Shown here: positions 1,111 to 13,582 of the stretch, one piece after another
How the letters are laid out: each line of letters begins with the position of its first letter
Position numbering within the stretch: position 1 is the first letter of the stretch
Assembly: GCA_964035575.1 (NCBI GenBank)
Contig: OZ037834.1
Location: forward strand, 2,170,001-2,234,000
Length of the DNA: 64,000 nt
Reading direction: 5' to 3'
From: Rhynchopus sp. YZ270_cl-10
Taxonomy: Eukaryota
The notes under the pieces: generated by a model
What the model was told of the DNA's origin: nothing
Database searches by the model: none
The model's input: the letters and a program-made list of their open reading frames with translations, nothing else
Position numbers and translations under genes: made by a program

Positions 1111-2823
1111 ATGGAACGGCGGGATGCGTTCTCCGAGCTTATGGTGGGGGCACGGTTCCAACGGAAACGCTTCAGCGCAGACATTGCGAAGTTCACCCCT
1201 CAGGCGAAGAGCCCCACCATCCACGCTGCAACGGCACCGCTACGGGGGCATAAGGGGGTAGACTTTTTGGAGACAGCGTCGAACAACGCACCCAGCGTCG
1301 CATCGACAGACATGGACAGCGAGGCAGGGGACGATGGTGCTCCTACAGCAAAGCCCTCCCCAGCGACACCCCTCCCAAAGCCAGGCAAACAGAAGTCCCT
1401 CGACCTCCGCAAGGAAAACCACATCAAAGCATCCGGAGCGGACCTGCCACCACCGTGCGCGAACTTCCAACAGGCCATTTCTTGGTACAACATCCACGAC
1501 CAGCTTTCCCGCAACCTTCTCTCCCGTGGGTTTGTCACCCCAACCCCGATTCAAATGCAGGGTCTGCCGTCTTTGTTGGAAAAGCGGGATTTTATTGGGG
1601 TTGCGCCTACTGGAAGCGGAAAGACACTGACCTTTTTGCTTCCTATGTTGGCAAGGCTTGCGAGCCCGAAGACGACCGGGTTGAGAGCGTTGGTTCTGTC
1701 CCATTCAAAGGAGCTGGCTGCACAAAGTGAACGCGAACTGCGGTATCTCTGCAAAGGGCGCAACTGGGGGGTGCAAACCATGACCTCAAGCAAGACGGGA
1801 GTAAACAAGAGAGACATTCTGTGTACCACCCCAGGGCGTCTGGAGTCCTTCATCAAGGAGCAGGCTCTGTCTCTGGCCGCAGTGGAGTACATCGTCTTTG
1901 ACGAGGCGGATCAACTGTTCGACATTTCGCACGACAGCTTCTTCAACGTCATGAAATCGGTTCTCGACCGCTGCACCCTCCCCACCAAACAGATTGCTGT
2001 CCTCTGCGCGACTCTCCCAGAGAAGTGCGAAGGTATCATCAGAACATTCCTTCAAAACCCTCTTAGAGTGATGATCGGAACCCGCGCGTCTGCGTCGAAG
2101 AACGTTGTGCAACGGCTGGAGTACTGTGGGAAGGAGACCGGGAAGAAGGAGGCTGTCAAGCAGATTCTGCAACGCGGCCTGGCACCCCCGGTGCTGATGT
2201 TCGTGCAAAGCATCGACCGTGCCAAGGATCTGTACGGTGAGCTCTCTTTGTTGGATCTCCGCGTCGCTGCCATTCACTCTGACCGCACTACGGAACAACG
2301 TGACCGCACGGTACGTGAATTCCGTATGGGTAAGGTGAACGTTCTCATCTGCACAGAACTGATGGCGCGTGGAGTCGACTTCAAGGGTGTCGCCACAGTA
2401 CTCAACTACGACTTCCCCACCACCATCCAATCGTACGTCCATCGTGTCGGACGTACCGGCCGTGCCGGGAGAGAAGGTCTCGCCATCACTCTCTGGACAG
2501 ACGAAGACCGCCCCTACCTCCGAGGTGTCGCGCACATCATCAAATCCTCCGGCGGCGATGTCCCAGAATGGATGCTCCTGCTCTCAAAACGTTACGGCAA
2601 AGTGAAGAAGCGGAAGTTCCGTGGCGAGGAGGGGGGTGAAGAAGGTGAGGGTGAGGGTGAAGGTGAAGGAAAGCCTGTGAAGACAGAGGAAGAGCTGGAG
2701 GCTGAGAAGGCTGCGCACCAGAAGCGGGCAGAGCAGGCGAAGATCATGCCGGTACGGAGGGAGGCGATCTCTGCAATGCGCCGGGTCAAGGATGCGGAGA
2801 ACAGGAACAAACAGTATGTGTAG
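1111..2823 (+). CDS. DDX52: DEAD-box RNA helicase, DDX52/ROK1 type (ribosome biogenesis)
   Basis: Q motif (PTPIQ), APTGSGKT, TPGRL, DEAD, ARGVDF, YVHRVGRTGRAG. The N-terminus (DAFSELMVGARFQRKRF) is ROK1-like. ATG at 1111 follows a TTTCAG acceptor. Confidence 0.85.
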   Translation: MERRDAFSELMVGARFQRKRFSADIAKFTPQAKSPTIHAATAPLRGHKGVDFLETASNNAPSVASTDMDSEAGDDGAPTAKPSPATPLPKPGKQKSLDLRKENHIKASGADLPPPCANFQQAISWYNIHDQLSRNLLSRGFVTPTPIQMQGLPSLLEKRDFIGVAPTGSGKTLTFLLPMLARLASPKTTGLRALVLSHSKELAAQSERELRYLCKGRNWGVQTMTSSKTGVNKRDILCTTPGRLESFIKEQALSLAAVEYIVFDEADQLFDISHDSFFNVMKSVLDRCTLPTKQIAVLCATLPEKCEGIIRTFLQNPLRVMIGTRASASKNVVQRLEYCGKETGKKEAVKQILQRGLAPPVLMFVQSIDRAKDLYGELSLLDLRVAAIHSDRTTEQRDRTVREFRMGKVNVLICTELMARGVDFKGVATVLNYDFPTTIQSYVHRVGRTGRAGREGLAITLWTDEDRPYLRGVAHIIKSSGGDVPEWMLLLSKRYGKVKKRKFRGEEGGEEGEGEGEGEGKPVKTEEELEAEKAAHQKRAEQAKIMPVRREAISAMRRVKDAENRNKQYV

Positions 2824-3556
2824 GTTTGCTTTCTAAGAGGCTACACCCTTTAGTGCTTACTGTTTGTGTTATAAATAGTAAGTATACGAATGTATTTCTA
2901 AGACCTGTAGAAGGCTGATTCATCTTTTCAACGTTTCTTTTCTGTGTTTATGTCCAAGTTCAACAATTTTTCATTCCCAATTAAAACAGTCACAAGAAGA
3001 GAAAGCACAACAGCGACGATAAGGACGGGAAGAAGCCGAGCGGTTCAAAAGGCCCCAAACGGCGCAGAACTGTAGAGCAGTAGCCAGATATGGGGGGGTT
3101 CCTTCAGCATAGCTTTTTTTTTTCTCTCTTCTCTGAACGGCAAAATATGGGGTGATGGGTGATGGACGTCAGACCGGTCTTCCGAAAAAACTGGCCATTT
3201 TATTTTTTGTATGCCAAAAACTGTGCCGGCACCCTAGCCTTTTATTGTGGCGAGCATCATCGCGGGTCAAACAAAAAAAACGATGCAAAGAAAAATGCAA
3301 AAACGGGTAAAACTCATGGAATCAGTCAAAAAAAACACACACACACACTCAAAGCTCTTTTCTATCGAAGAGCAAACCACGCAATATTGTTATCACAAAG
3401 AACTTCCCCCCGCCCCCTCCATAGTTTCCCCTCCCCCCAAAACCTACCCAACTTTTCCTCTTTCCTCTTACCCCTCTCTATCCAGCTTCATCACACACAA
3501 TATACCTACCTTTTTTTAGGTACCTTTTATCTTTTTAAACTTGAGTACTCTTTAAG

Positions 3557-5697
3557 ATGAGCGGGAAGGTTGCACTGTTCGCAGGGCCTACACGGGCTGC
3601 ATTCCGGAACCTTAAGGCATGCCAATCGCATCCTCAGGTGGCGGGGCTTGTTCAGCGTGCAGCTGACACGCTGAAGAACAGTGGCGCGAGTCTGGACCTG
3701 CTGAAGGAGCTAGAGAAGGAGGCGTGGACAGCGTCGGAGGAGACTGATGAGGAGGGGGCGAACTCTGTGGCGGTGAAGTTGGTGTCGCAGCTGGCGGGGT
3801 TCTTGACGCAGTACTCTTTGGAGGCTGTCCCGACCGACTTCCTTGCGACAACAGGAGACCGTCCGGGTATGTTCGCGGCCGTCCTTGTTGCCGCCTCTAA
3901 TGACACCGCTGCCCTGCTCACCCACCTCGACTCCTTCCTCAAGGCCGCCCTCATCGCGGGCGCCAAGACCGAATCCTCCGCCAAAGCGATTGCCGAGCAA
4001 TGGCACGCCAAGGGCATCAAGCTCCCCACCGCCTCCGCTCTGCGTCTCCCCGTCCTCGGCTGCGATGGGCGTGGTGATCTTCGGGCCTGCAAAGACCTGA
4101 CCACAGAGCTTGCCTCCCTCTGCCTCCACATCGACTACGAAGAGAACGCTGCAATGGAGGCAGCGCATAAGGAGGTGCGTGCCAAGATCGAGACTGTCGT
4201 GGACTTTGGATGCCCTGCAAGCAAGAACGGAAGAATCGGCCTTCCCGTGGACGGTGTGCGCGACCTCGCGACGTTGAACTACATGCTCCCGGATGTGGCG
4301 GAGATCAAGAAGGAGGTGATCAAGCGTGGCTACACCTGGGACATCTCGCTGGTGCACTCCTTCCTCTGGCTGGCGCATGACGTGGTGATCAACGCGGCGC
4401 TCATGTACCTGACATACCTCGTGCTGCCCTTCTTCTCCAACACCCTGACCTGGACCGTCCTCTGGCCTCTCTACTCCGTCGTGGTCGGTACTACCCTTAC
4501 AGGGATCTGGGTTATCGGTCACGAATGCGGCCACCGTGCTTTCGCGGGTACCGGTGCAAACTCTTGGATCAACGATGTCGTCGGTGTTATCACACACACA
4601 CCCCTCCTCGTGCCCTTCTGGGCATGGCGCTTCTCGCACCACAAGCACCACATGTTCACCAACCATCTTCTTGACGGTGAGACTCACGTTCCCGCGCATA
4701 AGAACGGTATGTAAAAAAGATGAAACATGGTTAAAAACAAACTACAGGAACCGGTCTGGACAAGGCGGCGATGAAGATCACCGGGGAAGAGGGATTCGTC
4801 TTCTGGAACATTGTGCAGCACTTGGTCTTTGGGTATGACACCATCCCCTACGCCACAAAACCCCCCCCCCCCCCCCCACCCCACCCGGAAACTGACGTCT
4901 CCACATCCCAGCGACAACACCTTTTCTCTTTTCTGCTCACTCGATACCTACATGCTAAGCATCCCCTCCTGAATGTACCTCACCTTACAAAACCCACACT
5001 CCATATCCATCACAGCTGGCCGCTGTACCTCATCAACAACGCAACGGGAGGCCGCCGCACCCCCCAGGGCAAGAAGATCGACCGCAAGAAGTCGAAGAGC
5101 CACTTCAAGCCCGGCAGCCAGGTCTTCGAGGACAACCAGCGCCCCATGATCCTCCCCGGCACCACGGCGTGCGTCGCCTGGGTCGCCGCTATGTTCTACC
5201 TGGACTACGAGCTCGGCTTCGGCACCTCCCTCTTCTGGTATGAGACCCACCCCCTCCCCTCTCCCCTCTCCCCTCTCCCCTCCATTTAATCATCCCTCAG
5301 GTTCTGGGGAGCGTACATGGTGGTCAACTCATGGCTCGTTCTGTACACATGGCTGCACCACGCTGACCCTGAGATCCCCCACTTCTCGGACGGTCAGTTC
5401 TCGTACATGCGTGGAGCGACCTGCAGCTGTGACAGAAACTACCCTGCGATCATCAACTATCTGCACCACGACATCGGGTCGACGCACGTTCTGCACCACA
5501 TCAGCTTCCAGTTGCCGTTCTACTTCGCGCAGAACGCAACAAAGGTGTTCCGTGAGCGCTACCCCCACCTCTACCGCTACGACACCCGCCCGCTTATGCA
5601 CACTATGTTCGAGGTCTCAAAGAAGTGCCACTACGTCGATGACGTGCAGGGTGTGCAGTACTACAAACCTCTCGAGCTGAAGAAGAAGTCCCAATAG
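3557..5697 (+). CDS. Delta12/omega-3-family fatty-acid desaturase with an N-terminal degenerate FAS-type acetyltransferase (AT/SAT-like) domain; 4 exons, about 617 aa
   Basis: Exons 3557-4706, 4748-4832, 5016-5237, 5301-5697 (1854 nt in total). His boxes HECGH, HHKHH and HVLHH are present, and splicing restores LVFGWPLYL. All three introns are GTATG...CAG. Confidence 0.9.
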
Positions 5698-8645
5698 ATT
5701 TATTTTTTTGGGGGGATTTGTGTTGGTTTGTTGAAAAAAAAAACTGCGAAAAAAAAAAATTGGAGCTGCCTTTCTGAAGGTATCCTTAAAAAAAATGCTT
5801 CCCATTAACTAATGTGGAGGTACGCAGTTTTTTATTATGGTTTCCACATCATGATGGACCCTCTAATCCTTTTCCCACACACAAATCCATTTTTAAATCT
5901 CTTCTTCTAGGTGATAAAAGCAGCGAAGAGAAAAGCTTGGGTTCATCTTATAAATTATTACTTTTTTTTTTTTAAATCCCCATTCAGAACGATCGAATCG
6001 AAATCTAACACAAAAACAAAACAAAAAAAAAGACGTCCTTTTTTAACCCCCTCCAATCTGGGGTCTTTTATGAATAGATCGAAGACAAAGAAAAAAAAAA
6101 AAAACAATTACTCTCCAAATGAGAAACAAAAAAAACACCGTTTTTAAAAGGAACGTAAAAGAAATGACCCTCTCCTGAGAGGGAAAAGGGTGGGGGTGGG
6201 AATAATGGAGAAAAAAGTAAAGAAGGAATGGTAAAATAAAGGAAGGAAGCACCAGGCATAGTTTCTCCCCCTTTGTCAGAAAATCTGATTTTGAAGCGAA
6301 TTTTTTGTTTTGTTTTTTTTTTTGTTTCCCCCTTTTCCAAAAGTTTTCCGCATCTTTTTCAGCTTTCTCTCCTAAACACTTGGTTCTCATTTTCACATGA
6401 ATTATGGGGATGCACATATGGATATAAGGGAGAAGAGAGTGAGAGAGAAGAAGAAAACGAGACTTGGGGTTTTAAAAAATAAAATATAACATTTTCTTCA
6501 AAATCAATTCTGTACATCATCACGAGATCCCTATACCTGTCCACTTTTTTTCCTCCCTTCTTTTGCTTTTTTTTTCCACCACGGAAACAATCGGGGGGTG
6601 TTTTCTCCTCGATTTCCGTTGGTGGGTCCGATCCTCCCCCGCCTCATTTTTTTTCGACCTTTTTTTCCCGCTTTTTTCTGTTTCTAACTGTACATTTGGT
6701 TCTAAAGAAAAAAAAAATAACAGTAAAAAGTAAAAAACGCCTTCTTTGAAGGTGGTATTGGGGAGGTAGGGGGGGAGGGCGACTTAAGCGAATGAGGCTC
6801 GCCTGTCTAAAGGTTTTTAGCCTTTTTTTTGGGGTCCTCTGATCGCTTCTGACACTTTCCCTCCCTCTCTCCCTGTTACCACCTGAAAATAAAGGTTTTT
6901 TGGTTATATCTGGGTTCACCCTCATCCCTCCCCTGCCGGTTGCTGCATGCGGCACTGAGTTCTCAAAGGGAAGGGGTTTTTTTTAAAGGGTGTGGTGTTC
7001 ATTTTATTTATACTTGAGAGGCAAACGCAATGGCGTATCGTATCGTAACGTTCTCTCTTTTGTTGTTTTCAATAATGTGCTTTCTCTCTTTTTTGAAAGT
7101 ATGAAAACTATTTTTTTTTCTTTTTTGTTTCAGCCCTTCCGTAGCATTTTGTGTGGAAACGTTCTACATCACGTCCGTTTCTTTGCACAAAAATATTTAT
7201 CAAACTTTTTTTGCCTTTTTTTTTTAAAGTCAAGTTTATTTTGACCACCTATTTTGAGCCAACCACGCCAAGTGGTCTCACAGGTTTTTTTTTTTGACTT
7301 TTTTTTTTTAAATTGCCTGTTACAGTTGAACTAATAGATAGAATGGTATCAGTGTAGCAGCTCGTGCAACTGCATCACCTGCAAATGTTTCACAGCCACT
7401 ACTCTTTTACCAGTGCAATCACAGTTCAGCTGCGCGGAGCACATCGTTTCTAGTGTGTGCCCTCCCACTTTATTCCAAAAAAAAAAAAAAAAAGAAACAG
7501 GAAAAAAAAAACAAATAATATTCCACACTGTGGCAGTACTTACCCTAGTTTTTAGCTATTGCTGCCACTTATTTCGTCATCTCTCCCTCAAAACATTCTT
7601 CCCTCCCCCCCCCGTACATCCTTGTTAAAATACGACACCAGTAATACCAGACAGGTGGTACCACAGGCGTTTGTCAAATTTTTCAAAAAAAACAAAACGT
7701 TTTTTTTTTCTCATTTTGTTTTTCTTGTCGTCAATGGTTGAGTCATCACTACACAATGATTTATTTTTTTTTAAAGGAGGCCATTTTTGTTCAGGCTTTC
7801 CTTGTTTTAAAAGCTTGCCTGAAATGGGGTGGTCTCATTTTTAATTTAAATGATCTGTGTATTTTTTCTCCTTTGCTTTTCTGTTTCTTTTTCCAGTTTT
7901 TTTTCCCCTTGAAAGATGTGTTGTGCCCCCCCCACTCCATTCTGAGGCCCCACATGCATCTTTTAAGTTTTACATCTTTTTTTTTTTATCCCCATTTTTT
8001 TTTTCTTACATTTGTTTGCGTATCTGCATTGTTTCACAGTGCGTTGCTATTCTTTGTGTCCCCTTCCCAAAACTCATCCCCCCCCTCCAGGGGAACCCAC
8101 AAAGCAAGAATATCAATGATTTCCAAAGCTATATTTAAAAGAAAAGGTGAATTAAAAAAAAAACCCCCCCACACCCCCTTTTTTCCGTTCTAAATAGAAC
8201 GTCATTTGTCGATTTCAAAGAATATGAAAACCCAATTTTTCTTCTAAAATACGTGTAGTAAGCACGAGAGGCTTAGGAGAGGCTAGGATCATCTGATAAA
8301 CTTCTCTCTCTCTCTCTCTTGTCTCAACCATCGTTCACTAAAAGTTGGGTGAAGCGAACGGAGTACCTGTACGCTCACAATCTACAGGAGGTGTATACCG
8401 CCCTCGTTCTCTTACGGTACGGGCAAGTCATTAGGTTTCCTTTTTACATCAACTGTTGTAGGCCACAAGGGCACTTGCACTAATTTTGTTTTCATCAGGA
8501 TGGCTGGCATCGTACTGTGGGTCAGTCAGAGGTACAACTACAGTTTTTTCTCTCTCTCTCAACAAATCCCCTCAGCGCTTCACCCTCCCCTCTCCCCTCA
8601 TCCTCACCCCCTCACCCTCTCCCCCTTCCACATCACCTTCCAACA

Positions 8646-9614
8646 ATGTGGCGACGGCGCATGAAACCACTGATTACACGTACCCTTGAGAACGTTGGCC
8701 TCCGTAAGAAACGCATTGTGGACACCCCTTGGCAAAGGTTCGACGGCGAACAGCGCCACACCGGGAAGGAGGGGCTGGGTGTCGGGGCCAGGCTGTTGGG
8801 GATGCTTCCTGTTGGTGTGGCGCAGTCGCTTGCTGCGGCGGAGCGGACGCGGAAGACTATGAACAATACAGCAGCGCTCGATGCGATGTTGCACAATGCG
8901 TCGCATAATGTTGTCAGGTCTCTGCAAGGCGTCGATAAATCTATCTCAAAAACACTGGAAGAAAAGGGGGGCACGGCGGCAGGTGGAATGGAAAAGGCTG
9001 AACGTGACCTTCATCAATTCATGGATAACCTCACAAAAGAGGTGACTACGACAGCAGACGTTGTCCGCCTCATGCAAAAGGCCCCAAAGAACCTTACCCC
9101 ACTTTGTCTTCCTACCCCTTGCACTGCCTTCCTTACCACTCTGCTTCAGGCACATAAACCTACCACAATTTTGGATTGTGGGAGTTATGTTGGTCTATAT
9201 TCTGCTTGCGTTATGTCAGTTGCGTTAAAGGATCATCCAATCATCGTGGCCGTAGAGAATAAGACGATTTTAGCTAATACCTGTCAAGGGATTATTAACA
9301 ACGTGAAAACGAAAAACATTGTGTGTCATTGGGGTAGCGTTGACGCCTTTGCAAAGGATAAAGCGCCCATCGTATTTGACTTTATTCTTCTAGACCACAA
9401 TCCGATTCTGTTCTTTGATGATCTGCAGACTCTCATCGCGAAGGGTAAAGTGAAGAAGGGGTGTCTCATAGCAGCGCATGTCGAGCTCAGTGGCGACGGA
9501 GGGAACCGTAGCGCGTACCATGAATACCTCACAAAGGTCGTTGCAGACAAACGATTCAAACCGATGCACTGCCCTCCTACCTCAGCTCTTCATGTCATTA
9601 GATATTTGGGATGA
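8646..9614 (+). CDS. Class I SAM-dependent O-methyltransferase-like (COMT-like) protein
   Basis: Motif I-like ILDCGSYVGLYS, post-I IVAVE, FDFILLDH. The Arg-rich N-terminus may be a targeting peptide. Confidence 0.6.
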   Translation: MWRRRMKPLITRTLENVGLRKKRIVDTPWQRFDGEQRHTGKEGLGVGARLLGMLPVGVAQSLAAAERTRKTMNNTAALDAMLHNASHNVVRSLQGVDKSISKTLEEKGGTAAGGMEKAERDLHQFMDNLTKEVTTTADVVRLMQKAPKNLTPLCLPTPCTAFLTTLLQAHKPTTILDCGSYVGLYSACVMSVALKDHPIIVAVENKTILANTCQGIINNVKTKNIVCHWGSVDAFAKDKAPIVFDFILLDHNPILFFDDLQTLIAKGKVKKGCLIAAHVELSGDGGNRSAYHEYLTKVVADKRFKPMHCPPTSALHVIRYLG

Positions 9615-9812
9615 GAGAGAGAGAGAGACGCAAAAACCAATCTTTTATAAACTCCGTCTGATGGCGTAAAAAACCCCCTCAAAAATGGGGAGGAAAAAGA
9701 ATCTGTTACCCCCCCCCTTTATTTCTCCCTCCCCCTCTCTGCATTCGCTTCTTTGCTTTTCTTAATACATTTGGATGAATTTGCCGACAGGAAGTCCCCC
9801 TCCCCCCCCATC

Positions 9813-10673
9813 ATGTCCTTCAATGGAGCCGCCATCGCGAAGAAAATTGGAATCGGTTTCGGAGGGCTGACCTCCGTGATGGTGATGGGAGTGGGGTATT
9901 TTTTTGGCAGTTCTTTTGGGATGACGGAGAAGATTGGGAGTTCCACTGAGCATACTCGGGTGCATTATGACGAGCGCACACGGATGTCGGCCTTCAACAC
10001 GATAGCACCGAAATACGATAAGGAAATTGGCATGGATGAGTTCTTCATGGGCATGCTGCTGCTCAGGAGATGGCTTCTCCGATCTGCTGTAGGAAACACC
10101 CTAGAAGTCGGTGCAGGAACCGGACGCAACCTGCCATATTATAAACGCTGCGATTCCGTCACCTTCACCGACCAATCCCGTGAAATGCTTGACCAAATTG
10201 AGGCAAAGCTTCCCCTTCCGTCGCCCCGCCTCTACGGCTCCACACCTACTGCCGAAGTAAAGCAAATGAGCACATCAAAACTCGCATTTCCTGACAATTC
10301 ATTTGACACGGTGGTATCTACCTTTGGGTTGTGTTCATATGAGGACCCGTTGGGTGCCTTGTCTGAGATGCAGAGAGTGTGCAAGCCGGAGGGGCGTATA
10401 CTATTGCTAGAGCACGGCCAAGGGACCTGGGGGTTTATCAACAGATGGCTCGCAATGGGGGCCGCAAATCACGCCAAGCATTATGGGTGTGTCTGGAACA
10501 AGCCCATCGCAGCGCTGGTTGACGAAGCGGGGCTCTCGGTGCTGCGCTCTCGTCGGTGGCATTTTGGGACGACATATTCCATTGTGGCAACCGGGCAGCC
10601 AAGGGAAGGGTACGTATCGCCCAACACTGCACCGAAGGTAGCTAAGGCAAAGCGTGGGGTTTTCACGGAGTAG
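9813..10673 (+). CDS. OMS1: SAM-dependent methyltransferase (Methyltransf_11), OMS1-like
   Basis: N-terminal TM segment, LEVGAGTGRNL, FDTVVSTFGLCS, GRILLLEHG, GCVWNK, RWHFGTTY. Confidence 0.7.
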   Translation: MSFNGAAIAKKIGIGFGGLTSVMVMGVGYFFGSSFGMTEKIGSSTEHTRVHYDERTRMSAFNTIAPKYDKEIGMDEFFMGMLLLRRWLLRSAVGNTLEVGAGTGRNLPYYKRCDSVTFTDQSREMLDQIEAKLPLPSPRLYGSTPTAEVKQMSTSKLAFPDNSFDTVVSTFGLCSYEDPLGALSEMQRVCKPEGRILLLEHGQGTWGFINRWLAMGAANHAKHYGCVWNKPIAALVDEAGLSVLRSRRWHFGTTYSIVATGQPREGYVSPNTAPKVAKAKRGVFTE

Positions 10674-10984: not shown

Positions 10985-11071
10985 CATTTGCTTGCATTTA
11001 CTTCACTTTCATTTCACTCAAAGCAATCCTAAGGGCCTGATACTTTGGAGACTTTCCCCCCCCCCCTCCCA

Positions 11072-11728
11072 ATGCCCCATACGATTTCTGCAGCGCTGAA
11101 CACCCTTCGCATTGCTACTCATGCCTGGGTGTCTCCTGCAGTCACCTTCAGCACCATCATAGGATCTGGTGCAGGTGTGATTTGCACCCACCCCGTACCG
11201 TCAGGGACAACCCTGGTGAAGGTGCACCACTCTCATGTGGTGCGCCACACAGATGGTGAAGTGGATGTGTCGCAGTTTCACAAACTGAGTCTTGCTGCAG
11301 CGTTGTTGCGGGAAGAGGTTTATTGCGATGCGCTTGGTGAGGCGCCGCACAACGGGGTGATGCTGTTGCCCAAACACTTTGAGACTGAGGAGTACAAAGT
11401 GCTGTGCAAGGGGTGGCGGGAGTTGGCAGAACAGCTGTCACATGAAACAGGCGTGTCTGTTGTACGGTCCCGCTGGGCGCTCTCGCACGTCCTCTCGAGG
11501 GCGGTGGTGCTTGACAAGGAGCCGGTACTGCTGCCACTGCTGGACCTCGCGAACCACTCCTTCACGCCAAACGCACGCTTTGCGCTCGACGGAGACGATG
11601 CCTGCCTCATAACAACGTCGCCTATAGAATCCGAAGAAGTTACAATACAATACTCAGATACAAAACCGGACACTCCAGGGGGAATCGACTTTTGGCGCTT
11701 CACTTGGGGGTTTATCCCTGAAACATAA
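11072..11728 (+). CDS. Small SET-domain protein-lysine methyltransferase (LSMT/SETD-like)
   Basis: GAGV N-SET motif, WALSHVLSRA, LLPLLDLANHS-x-PNA, EEVTIQY, TWGF. Confidence 0.75.
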   Translation: MPHTISAALNTLRIATHAWVSPAVTFSTIIGSGAGVICTHPVPSGTTLVKVHHSHVVRHTDGEVDVSQFHKLSLAAALLREEVYCDALGEAPHNGVMLLPKHFETEEYKVLCKGWRELAEQLSHETGVSVVRSRWALSHVLSRAVVLDKEPVLLPLLDLANHSFTPNARFALDGDDACLITTSPIESEEVTIQYSDTKPDTPGGIDFWRFTWGFIPET

Positions 11729-11977
11729 AAAAAAGCACCACGTTCTTTTCCACACACACAATGATCCTTTCCTCTGACCGACGAATGGAAGCGGGAGTAG
11801 CACATCAGATGCGAACCACGACATGGATGTAGAACTGCATGGTTGTCCACCCCCCCACTACACCGCTCATATACATCTACACTGTTACGATGTATTTCCC
11901 CTCCCTCCCCCCTCCCCCACTCCCCTCCACCTTATCTACCCTTTTCCCAAGAAAGACAATACACCAAAACAAAAGCA

Positions 11978-13582
11978 ATGCTACGACTCCTCTGCGTCTC
12001 CTCCTTGGCGCTGCTCTCCACTGCAGCCGCACCCGAGGTTTCTGTCGCTGGGCTGGGCACCTTCGTCGGGACAGAGCTGATCTTGACATCCAGCACAGTC
12101 GACGCCTTTCTTGGTGTGCAATACGCCTCGGCAGAGCGCTTTGAAAGCCCCATAGCGGAGGGCAGCTTCGAAGGCACGAAGCAGGCGACTCACTTCGGCG
12201 CGACCTGCCCAGGGTCGTACTGCTTCAACAGCGACAACACCACCTCCGATGCAGAGCAATGCCTCTTCCTCAACGTCTACCGCCCCTCAGGCATCCCCAG
12301 CACCGCCTCCCTTCCAGTCATGCTCTTCATCCACGGCGGAGGCTACCAATTCGGCTGCAGCAATACCTATCGGGGAGAAAATTTGGTGGATCGATCAGAC
12401 GGAACCATCTTGGTTGTGACGATCAACTACCGTTTGAACGCCTTTGGCTTCCTCGGGTCTGATAAGTTGAGGAGTAAAGATGGGGCAACGGGGACCTGGG
12501 GGTTTCAAGACCAGCGTGCGGCGATGTTGTGGGTGAATAAGTATATTAGGTCCTTTGGGGGTGATCCGGATAAGGTGACGATCTTCGGTCAGTCTGCTGG
12601 GGCGTCGTCTGTTTCGGGGCATATGACGTCTCCGAAGTCGAGGAAGTATTTTCGCAAAATGATTGCGCAAAGTGGGTTGGCGCCGACGTGGACCGTCAAC
12701 TCCTTGGCGCTGTCGGAGTCGCATTACGCAACGTTTCTTGGGTACGCGAAATGCGACGATGCGGCGTGTCTGAAGGGCCTATCCATGGAGGTGCTGCTGA
12801 ACGTTTCGTATCTCATTTCGTCGGGGTTTCAAATGGCGCATTCATTGAGCTGGGCCCCAGTCATTGATGGGGTGGAATTCACAAAGCAACCATGGCAGTC
12901 CTTCGAAGAGGGCGACTTTGCTGAAGGGATTGACATCATTTCAGGGACAAACCGGGATGAAATCGCCTTTTTTATGCTCAATATTGCGAGCGCCAATTCT
13001 TTGACATTTAACACCGTGCTTTCCACCATCATCACCAAACCGAAGTTGGCACAACTCGCCGAGCTCCGTAGTTTATACTCTACCGACAACTACTCATACC
13101 CAGAGGATATGGGGACATTCGACTATTGGTGGTGGGCCACCATGAGTGCCATGACAGATGGGATCTTTACCTGCGCAAGCAGAAGGGGGTTGAGATGGAT
13201 GAACAAGAAAAACCCGAATATGTATTCATACTTCGCAGTGCACCCGACGCAGGAGGTGACCGACATCCCCGGGGAGGGGCCAGGGAACGTTCTGGTGGGG
13301 CACTGTGCGGACCTCCCGTATGTGTTCAACTGCCCGTTGCTCCCTGGGTGCATCTGGACACAAGGGTACGAGGCGCAGCTCTCGCGGGACTACAGCGGCT
13401 TCTTCGTGAACTTCGCAAAGACAGGTGTCCCAGGAGGGAACTGGACAGAGCGGTACAATGCCACAGCAGACACGCACTTCGTCCTGGATATGCCGAAGGA
13501 GGCAGGTGGAGGTGGCTTCCGTTATGAAAGCAAAGTGCGCGCAGAGGCGTGTGACTTTTGGGATAAGAATCTCTACGCTTGA
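11978..13582 (+). CDS. Secreted type-B carboxylesterase / cholinesterase-like alpha/beta hydrolase
   Basis: Signal peptide, EQCLFLNVY, oxyanion motif HGGG, NYRL, nucleophile GQSAG, acid in TNRDE, His in GHCADL. Confidence 0.92.
   Translation: MLRLLCVSSLALLSTAAAPEVSVAGLGTFVGTELILTSSTVDAFLGVQYASAERFESPIAEGSFEGTKQATHFGATCPGSYCFNSDNTTSDAEQCLFLNVYRPSGIPSTASLPVMLFIHGGGYQFGCSNTYRGENLVDRSDGTILVVTINYRLNAFGFLGSDKLRSKDGATGTWGFQDQRAAMLWVNKYIRSFGGDPDKVTIFGQSAGASSVSGHMTSPKSRKYFRKMIAQSGLAPTWTVNSLALSESHYATFLGYAKCDDAACLKGLSMEVLLNVSYLISSGFQMAHSLSWAPVIDGVEFTKQPWQSFEEGDFAEGIDIISGTNRDEIAFFMLNIASANSLTFNTVLSTIITKPKLAQLAELRSLYSTDNYSYPEDMGTFDYWWWATMSAMTDGIFTCASRRGLRWMNKKNPNMYSYFAVHPTQEVTDIPGEGPGNVLVGHCADLPYVFNCPLLPGCIWTQGYEAQLSRDYSGFFVNFAKTGVPGGNWTERYNATADTHFVLDMPKEAGGGGFRYESKVRAEACDFWDKNLYA

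Follow-up and report, generated by a model that had tools for sequence, protein, structure and literature searches.

A membrane fatty-acid desaturase of diplonemids carries a degenerate domain derived from the acetyltransferase of fungal-type FAS-I

Within a 64,000-nucleotide stretch of Rhynchopus sp. YZ270_cl-10 DNA (hereafter, the window), we observe a four-exon gene at positions 3557-5697 of the forward strand whose 617-aa product joins two parts of separate origin. The first 238 residues have their origin in a fungal-type FAS-I acetyltransferase (AT), while the remainder is a membrane fatty-acid desaturase, identified by a match to Pfam FA_desaturase (PF00487) and three His boxes. The architecture is real, conserved, built of known parts and apparently undescribed. 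Its features are collected in Table 1.

Table 1. Features of the desaturase fusion gene, in window coordinates, and the basis of each assignment
Feature	Position	Strand	Basis or remark
Candidate spliced-leader acceptor (polypyrimidine tract + AG)	3454..3485	+	Upstream of start codon; putative site, pyrimidine fraction 0.93
Exons	3557-4706, 4748-4832, 5016-5237, 5301-5697	+	Three GT-AG introns
N-terminal AT/SAT-like putative pseudoenzyme domain, aa 1-238 (structurally aligned core aa 1-194)	3557..4270	+	Pfam SAT, PDB profile matches, Foldseek + VIA-align, ESM Atlas
First strand and oxyanion-loop position, LFAGP	3575..3589	+	Pro11 at column of P. pastoris AT Q171; alignment to 7bc4_B
Degenerate nucleophile elbow GDRPG	3854..3868	+	Arg102 (3860-3862) at catalytic Ser position (S282 of P. 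pastoris, GHSQG)
Rest of exon 1, desaturase N-terminal part	4271..4706	+	Pfam FA_desaturase E 1.3e-9
His box 1 HECGH	4520-4534	+	Residue 322, exon 1
His box 2 HHKHH	4637-4651	+	Residue 361, exon 1
Intron 1, 41 nt, GT-AG	4707..4747	+	Absent from X2 contig
Exon 2	4748..4832	+	Gene model + X2 contig
Intron 2, 183 nt, GT-AG	4833..5015	+	Absent from X2 contig
Exon 3	5016..5237	+	Gene model + X2 contig
Intron 3, 63 nt, GT-AG, inferred	5238..5300	+	Splice signals; frame open once removed; orthologue alignment (P0004, desaturase part 75% identical)
Exon 4, including stop and His box 3 HVLHH (5485-5499, residue 548)	5301..5697	+	Pfam, gene model

The initial annotation placed about 235 aa ahead of the desaturase core within exon 1, uninterrupted by a stop or an intron, and the gene model agrees: the N-terminal part is 238 aa long and the frame that begins at the ATG at 3557 is open (3557-4706) up to the intron 1 donor at 4707. 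The other two forward frames contain 7 and 8 stops within 3557-4270. A contig from run X2, whose status as RNA is a guess, spans 4633-5145 and leaves out the first two introns at their GT-AG ends. The junction between the AT-like and desaturase parts is crossed with zero differences by the X5 contig (3930-4533), which comes from a different study than X3, X4 and X6, and the X3 and X4 contigs, possibly from the source sample itself, span the whole of exon 1. Because contigs cross the junction and orthologues have the same fusion, an assembly artefact is ruled out. A continuous chain across the junction is seen at the protein level, in orthologues from transcriptome assemblies only. Internal trans-splicing that would skip the AT-like domain is unlikely, as the best acceptor-like site precedes the ATG and the orthologue proteins are full length. 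This candidate acceptor has a pyrimidine fraction of 0.93, the highest among all AGs in 3300-4420, and is followed by further AGs at 3519, 3545 and 3556; the best internal AG (3943) has a fraction of 0.80 and lies within C-rich coding DNA.

The origin of the N-terminal domain can be read from both sequence and structure, and its resemblance to AT/SAT domains exceeds chance. Pfam SAT (PF16073) matches 5/5 homologous domains (best E 4e-14); taken alone, the window protein scores just below the 22.8-bit cut-off (22.3 bits, E 1.2e-4), and the homologues P0005 and P0006 score over it (36.8 and 51.3 bits, respectively). When a profile of the five domains is compared with the PDB, FAS-beta chains come first (7bc4 at E 3.9e-6, 6u5v at 1.1e-5, 4v58 at 1e-4 and yeast at 4e-4), and the SAT domains of polyketide synthases (PKSs) come next, at E 0.004-0.01. 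A match of aa 169-235 to ribosomal protein S13 (E 0.16 or worse) is attributed to chance, and a homodimer prediction for the domain, made without use of the alignment, gave an uninformative score of 0.00. By ESM Atlas features, the SAT and FAS_AT clusters stand at 0.91, second to an unnamed bacterial cluster at 0.93. This 359-aa cluster of 87 members, the top one for both P0001 and P0006 (0.93 and 0.84), is commonest in Acidobacteriota and has no common Pfam family, and its members may be AT-like proteins that stand alone.

The fold model, built template-free from the five diplonemid sequences only, has a mean pLDDT of 59.7, with a helical core mostly at 70-86 and residues 164-238 mostly below 50. 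SAT and FAS-beta domains fill the top Foldseek rows obtained with this model, with a best E of 0.066 and none under 0.001. We ranked structures by a VIA-align re-alignment of 568 of Foldseek's own candidates, in which FAS-beta chains take ranks 1-14 (Z 12.9-14.2), PKS SAT domains reach Z 10.4-11.4 and no other acyltransferase exceeds 10.9; all 50 rows listed are synthases or acyltransferases with an alpha/beta-hydrolase-like AT core fold. The alignment to yeast FAS-beta 154-487 covers 186 residues at an rmsd of 2.9 Å and Z 14.2, a value that mostly helical models may reach by chance. Because sequence and structure agree, we assign the domain to a single family, and the model places its nearest fold in the fungal FAS-beta AT rather than in the PKS SAT. 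The initial annotation had named the domain as FAS-I AT/SAT-derived and expected SAT or FAS-beta AT matches from a structure search, and the Pfam, profile and structural results all point the same way, with the Foldseek E values themselves not significant. It had also paired six motifs with those of yeast Fas1, and HMMER alignments to FAS-beta chains bring all six pairs into register; the last two pairs, however, fall in a second alignment stretch that is weak alone (E 3 to 190 in the alignments that show it) and colinear in three chains, and the TVVDFG pair is recovered via P0006 only.

When compared to the fungal FAS-I beta AT (S. cerevisiae Fas1, PDB 9d49/2uv8; P. pastoris, 7bc4; T. lanuginosus, 4v58; PF16073), the window domain shares the fold, the motif order and the position of the elbow, but it is only 14-18% identical, has Asp in place of the elbow His, and is joined to a membrane desaturase instead of belonging to a synthase. 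The SAT domains of fungal non-reducing PKSs (PksA, 8cg4; CTB1, 6fij; CazM, 4ro5) are of the same fold family and match less well, and unlike the window domain they are N-terminal synthase units.

A further difference from these enzymes is the loss of the catalytic features. In P. pastoris FAS, S282 is the active Ser of the AT and Q171 contributes to the oxyanion hole, according to the sections available of PMC8105331. The Arg of GDRxG aligns to S282 of 7bc4, such that GHSQG is replaced by GDRxG, and the G-D-R-x-G pattern is invariant in 5/5 homologues, with 0/5 domains having a GxSxG or His-Ser-type motif. The column of the oxyanion Gln (FGGQG) instead holds Pro, His or Lys. Furthermore, about 125 residues are missing relative to the FAS-beta AT: the alignment to 7bc4 jumps from FAS-beta 317 to 444 and that to 6u5v from 294 to 424, in each case across 2-3 query positions, and the 186 residues aligned by VIA span 334 of yeast FAS-beta. 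In mammalian MAT, substrates bind in a cleft that the hydrolase and ferredoxin-like subdomains form between them, and the dyad His lies at the hinge (PMC6954729, in the part available). From this description, we infer that the missing residues correspond to the ferredoxin-like subdomain and include the dyad His of its hinge. Their loss would leave neither acyl transfer nor an intact acyl-CoA cleft, and the AT-like domain is predicted to be dead, acyl transfer not being plausible from its sequence. The initial annotation had claimed both that the catalytic Ser is lost, which the alignments show outright, and that the inserted subdomain is absent, which they show as gaps whose identity is our interpretation. 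The domain would thereby offer a clean example of a pseudoenzyme formed by excision of a whole subdomain.

We next turn to relatives, among which the initial annotation had proposed to look for the fusion; proteins derived from transcripts show that Rhynchopus euleeides and Flectonema neradi indeed have it. The nearest protein is P0004 (632 aa), from the R. euleeides transcriptome, which is 56% identical over the N-terminal domain and 75% over the desaturase and has one PF00487 stretch. P0005 clusters with P0008, a 614-aa protein from the F. neradi transcriptome with the same fusion, while P0006 is Diplonema papillatum DIPPA_29628 (KAJ9460102.1), named 'hypothetical protein', in which an extra stretch and a unit annotated as delta-9 come after the AT-like domain with GDRxG. 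The N-terminal domain was searched against 1.84 billion representatives and had four matches at E <=0.001, namely P0005, P0006, the protein of the window itself and P0007; the last, a repeat protein (E 4e-4), is a chance match and was kept out of all alignments. The domain of P0006 scores 41 bits with phmmer, compared with a maximum of 5.4 among 1000 shuffles. Word-index searches of proteins up to 2000 aa, a range that full FAS chains exceed, returned P0004, either alone or beside the window's own protein, and no other protein. A pattern search for the domain gave none in metagenome or prokaryote genome contigs, one chance match in plasmids and one match in viral contigs, to a plain desaturase. 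No second copy of the gene is present within the 64-kb window.

Across Rhynchopus, Flectonema and Diplonema, the AT-like domain is 28-56% identical with 29 invariant columns, and the desaturase is 68-75% identical. From this identity and these columns, the AT-like domain is under constraint, though evolving faster than the desaturase. The invariant core residues are G100, D101, R102, G104, E147, W149, G153, R163, P165, D174 and R176. In total, four species retain the domain, and the desaturase proteins that bear it are of two different kinds.

The C-terminal part resembles a methyl-end desaturase of the FAD2/FAD3 type and is putatively delta-12-type; we take this class (delta-12/omega-3) from the His-box pattern, and the tree described below holds no characterised enzyme. 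Pfam scans detect no cytochrome b5 domain, consistent with the methyl-end assignment. As in methyl-end desaturases (PF00487), the three His boxes occur in the usual order. The stretch before the first box, however, is far longer, with 315-327 residues in the fusions compared with at most 149 in 61 of 63 closed metagenomic relatives in which the Met was counted. These relatives were drawn from the best 80 of 213 metagenomic desaturase loci, which are 26-47% identical to the window desaturase; the His-box-1 motif is found in 78/80, and 65 are closed by an upstream stop. A profile of the AT-like domain matches 0/80 of these loci (best E 0.99), in keeping with the earlier claim that delta-12/omega-3 desaturases normally lack such a domain.

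We placed 77 of the 80 loci and three proteins from diplonemids in a quick tree. The diplonemid enzymes group as a single clade (support 100) nested in a 10-row group (95), which has long branches and of which we are unsure. This group also holds L002 and L007, which have the two longest N-termini and two PF00487 stretches each. L002:1258-3894 is a single ORF of 878 aa with what we take, from their motifs, to be an ELO elongase, a delta-9-like and a delta-12-like unit; by eye, its neighbours are Erv1-type thiol oxidase-like and patatin-like genes, a neighbourhood that suggests a giant virus. L007:3-3197 is an intronless, GC-rich ORF, no shorter than 1064 aa, in which two units that are delta-9-like and delta-12-like by the same criterion stand in tandem, and is perhaps a protist transcript.

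The D. papillatum protein differs from the other fusions in what follows the AT-like domain. The stretch after it resembles an acyl carrier motif, judged by eye, and gives no Pfam, PDB or Atlas match in whole-protein scans. The gene model of P0006 is truncated, and its last part matches delta-9 units weakly (E 0.08 with L002, no match with L007); its delta-9 identity therefore rests on published annotation. In the rows available of the PMC12697944 supplement, transcript TR35208 (DIPPA_29628 + DIPPA_22941) is listed as SCD/delta-9 with '2 x PF00487' and assigned to the ER/Golgi, and the rows for DIPPA_29628 make no mention of an AT-like domain. As the model ends early and the transcript has two PF00487 matches, the full DIPPA_29628/TR35208 protein may be AT-carrier-delta-9-delta-12. 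Among the rows shown in the same supplement, two fungal-type FAS I proteins are classed with the cytosolic proteasome cluster, and there is no delta-12/FAD2 row. D. papillatum FAS-I is described elsewhere as cytosolic, and Table S1 of that paper gives a single chain of 4122 residues with GHSQG intact (PMC8611851, in the part available); we compared its AT with the AT-like domain by eye over the first 400 residues. The presence of this FAS-I, a partner that the initial annotation had suggested seeking in relatives, makes a FAS partner possible.

Our preferred explanation, held tentatively and with slightly less than even confidence, is that the dead AT domain works as a docking module, not as a catalyst, and couples the delta-12-type enzyme with the delta-9 reaction. 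The retained alpha/beta-hydrolase core, with its invariant residues, would form a cytosolic protein-binding surface, the partner of which would be the delta-9 enzyme or its carrier arm, and oleoyl chains would be handed over between the two desaturases at the ER. This partner is suggested because the same tag is found on the delta-9-annotated D. papillatum protein and is followed there by the carrier-like stretch seen by eye. The likely history would start from a multidomain ancestor of the form AT-carrier-delta-9(-delta-12), whose transferase activity was lost and which was split or shortened.

Several observations are consistent with such coupling: the conservation of the domain in three genera with its 29 invariant columns, its occurrence on P0006, whose transcript is annotated as SCD/delta-9 and ER/Golgi, and the delta-9/delta-12 tandems of L002 and L007 among the nearest desaturase relatives. 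There are also precedents, as plant FAD2 and FAD3 are reported to associate and channel substrate (the available text of PMC4606734, citing Lou et al. 2014), and AT and SAT domains act as ACP docking stations in FAS and PKS, going by the titles of PDB 8psf and 8cg6. Against coupling, the carrier-like stretch of P0006 is without a profile match, P0006 is truncated with a weak delta-9 match, and the quick tree places the enzymes in a 10-row group with long branches. Moreover, methyl-end desaturases usually act on acyl-lipids, not on carrier-bound chains. A bolder version is, in our estimate, improbable: carrier-tethered assembly-line desaturation at the ER of diplonemids, in which delta-9 and delta-12 enzymes tagged with the dead AT would dock an acyl-carrier arm and pass the chain on, the system descending from an AT-ACP-delta-9-delta-12 megaenzyme made of FAS-I parts.

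The alternative that survives best, unlikely but deserving serious consideration, is that the domain is a structural relic of an ancestral multidomain protein: its sole remaining role would be in the folding, stability or turnover of the desaturase, and it would have no specific partner. The faster evolution of the domain (30-56% versus 68-75% identity), the loss of every catalytic feature and the fact that most relatives function without it (0/80 loci) are what one would predict for a relic, but G-D-R-x-G and several charged or aromatic invariants persist at a background identity of 28-35%, and the domain is retained on two different proteins in different genera. It is distinctly unlikely that the dead AT core instead senses a ligand, binding acyl-CoA, CoA or a phosphopantetheine arm via the invariant Arg and regulating or feeding the desaturase. 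The ancestor was a CoA-ester-binding enzyme and the Arg at the former Ser position is invariant, yet the transferase pocket is the hydrolase/ferredoxin-like cleft (the part available of PMC6954729), and the second of these subdomains appears to be deleted.

Direct docking on the fungal-type FAS-I barrel, as put forward in the initial annotation, would have new chains desaturated at once, for example by mimicry of an AT contact. The nearest fold is the FAS-beta AT and D. papillatum has the single-chain FAS-I described above, but the ACP and most active sites lie inside the FAS cage (PMC8105331, in the sections available), and the FAS of D. papillatum falls with the proteasome cluster on fractionation, whereas the delta-9 product with the AT-like domain is assigned to the ER/Golgi. 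The occurrence of the domain on a delta-9-annotated protein shifts the likely partner from FAS to another desaturase. In addition, saturated FAS products are not delta-12 substrates, as they need delta-9 desaturation first. We consider FAS docking quite improbable and weaker than delta-9/delta-12 coupling. Finally, despite the invariance of Asp101 and Arg102, it is hardly credible that the domain is still enzymatic with Asp101 or another residue replacing Ser, given that GxSxG and His-Ser-type motifs are missing from 5/5 domains, the oxyanion Gln is lost and the lid subdomain is missing.

A dead FAS transferase domain on a membrane desaturase is a new architecture, in a family for which cytochrome b5 fusions have already been discussed. 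The latter are the fusions treated in the available part of a family survey restricted to proteins of 350-550 aa (PMC5037126). A full-text literature search, with subscription journals and bioRxiv supplements outside its scope, found no description of a desaturase/AT fusion in the text it covered, and to that extent the initial claim of novelty stands. The word 'desaturase' is absent from the main text of the D. papillatum genome paper, DIPPA_29628 and DIPPA_22941 are absent from its supplements, and the supplements of PMC12699882 contain no match. Polyunsaturated fatty acid synthesis is barely described in diplonemids, which are among the most abundant marine protists. The occurrence of the domain on delta-12-type and delta-9-annotated enzymes makes the long-standing question of acyl hand-over between synthesis and successive desaturases testable, and D. 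papillatum is genetically tractable. If the domain is truly a portable coupling tag, it would be of use to PUFA engineering.

The gene's neighbourhood offers some further observations. Directly upstream lies an intronless DEAD-box RNA helicase ORF (window 1114-2823, forward strand; Pfam DEAD, Helicase_C) with no evident link to lipid metabolism. Downstream on the same strand, we observe by eye two methyltransferase-like ORFs (8484-9614 and 9651-10673), a SET-like ORF (11033-11728) and a carboxylesterase-like ORF (11801-13582). Just past the helicase stop, about 55 bases at 2842-2899 are single-copy in the window and have no Rfam match, but the summed depth of contigs there is several hundred times that of the flanks, and this segment is likely a high-copy repeat element.
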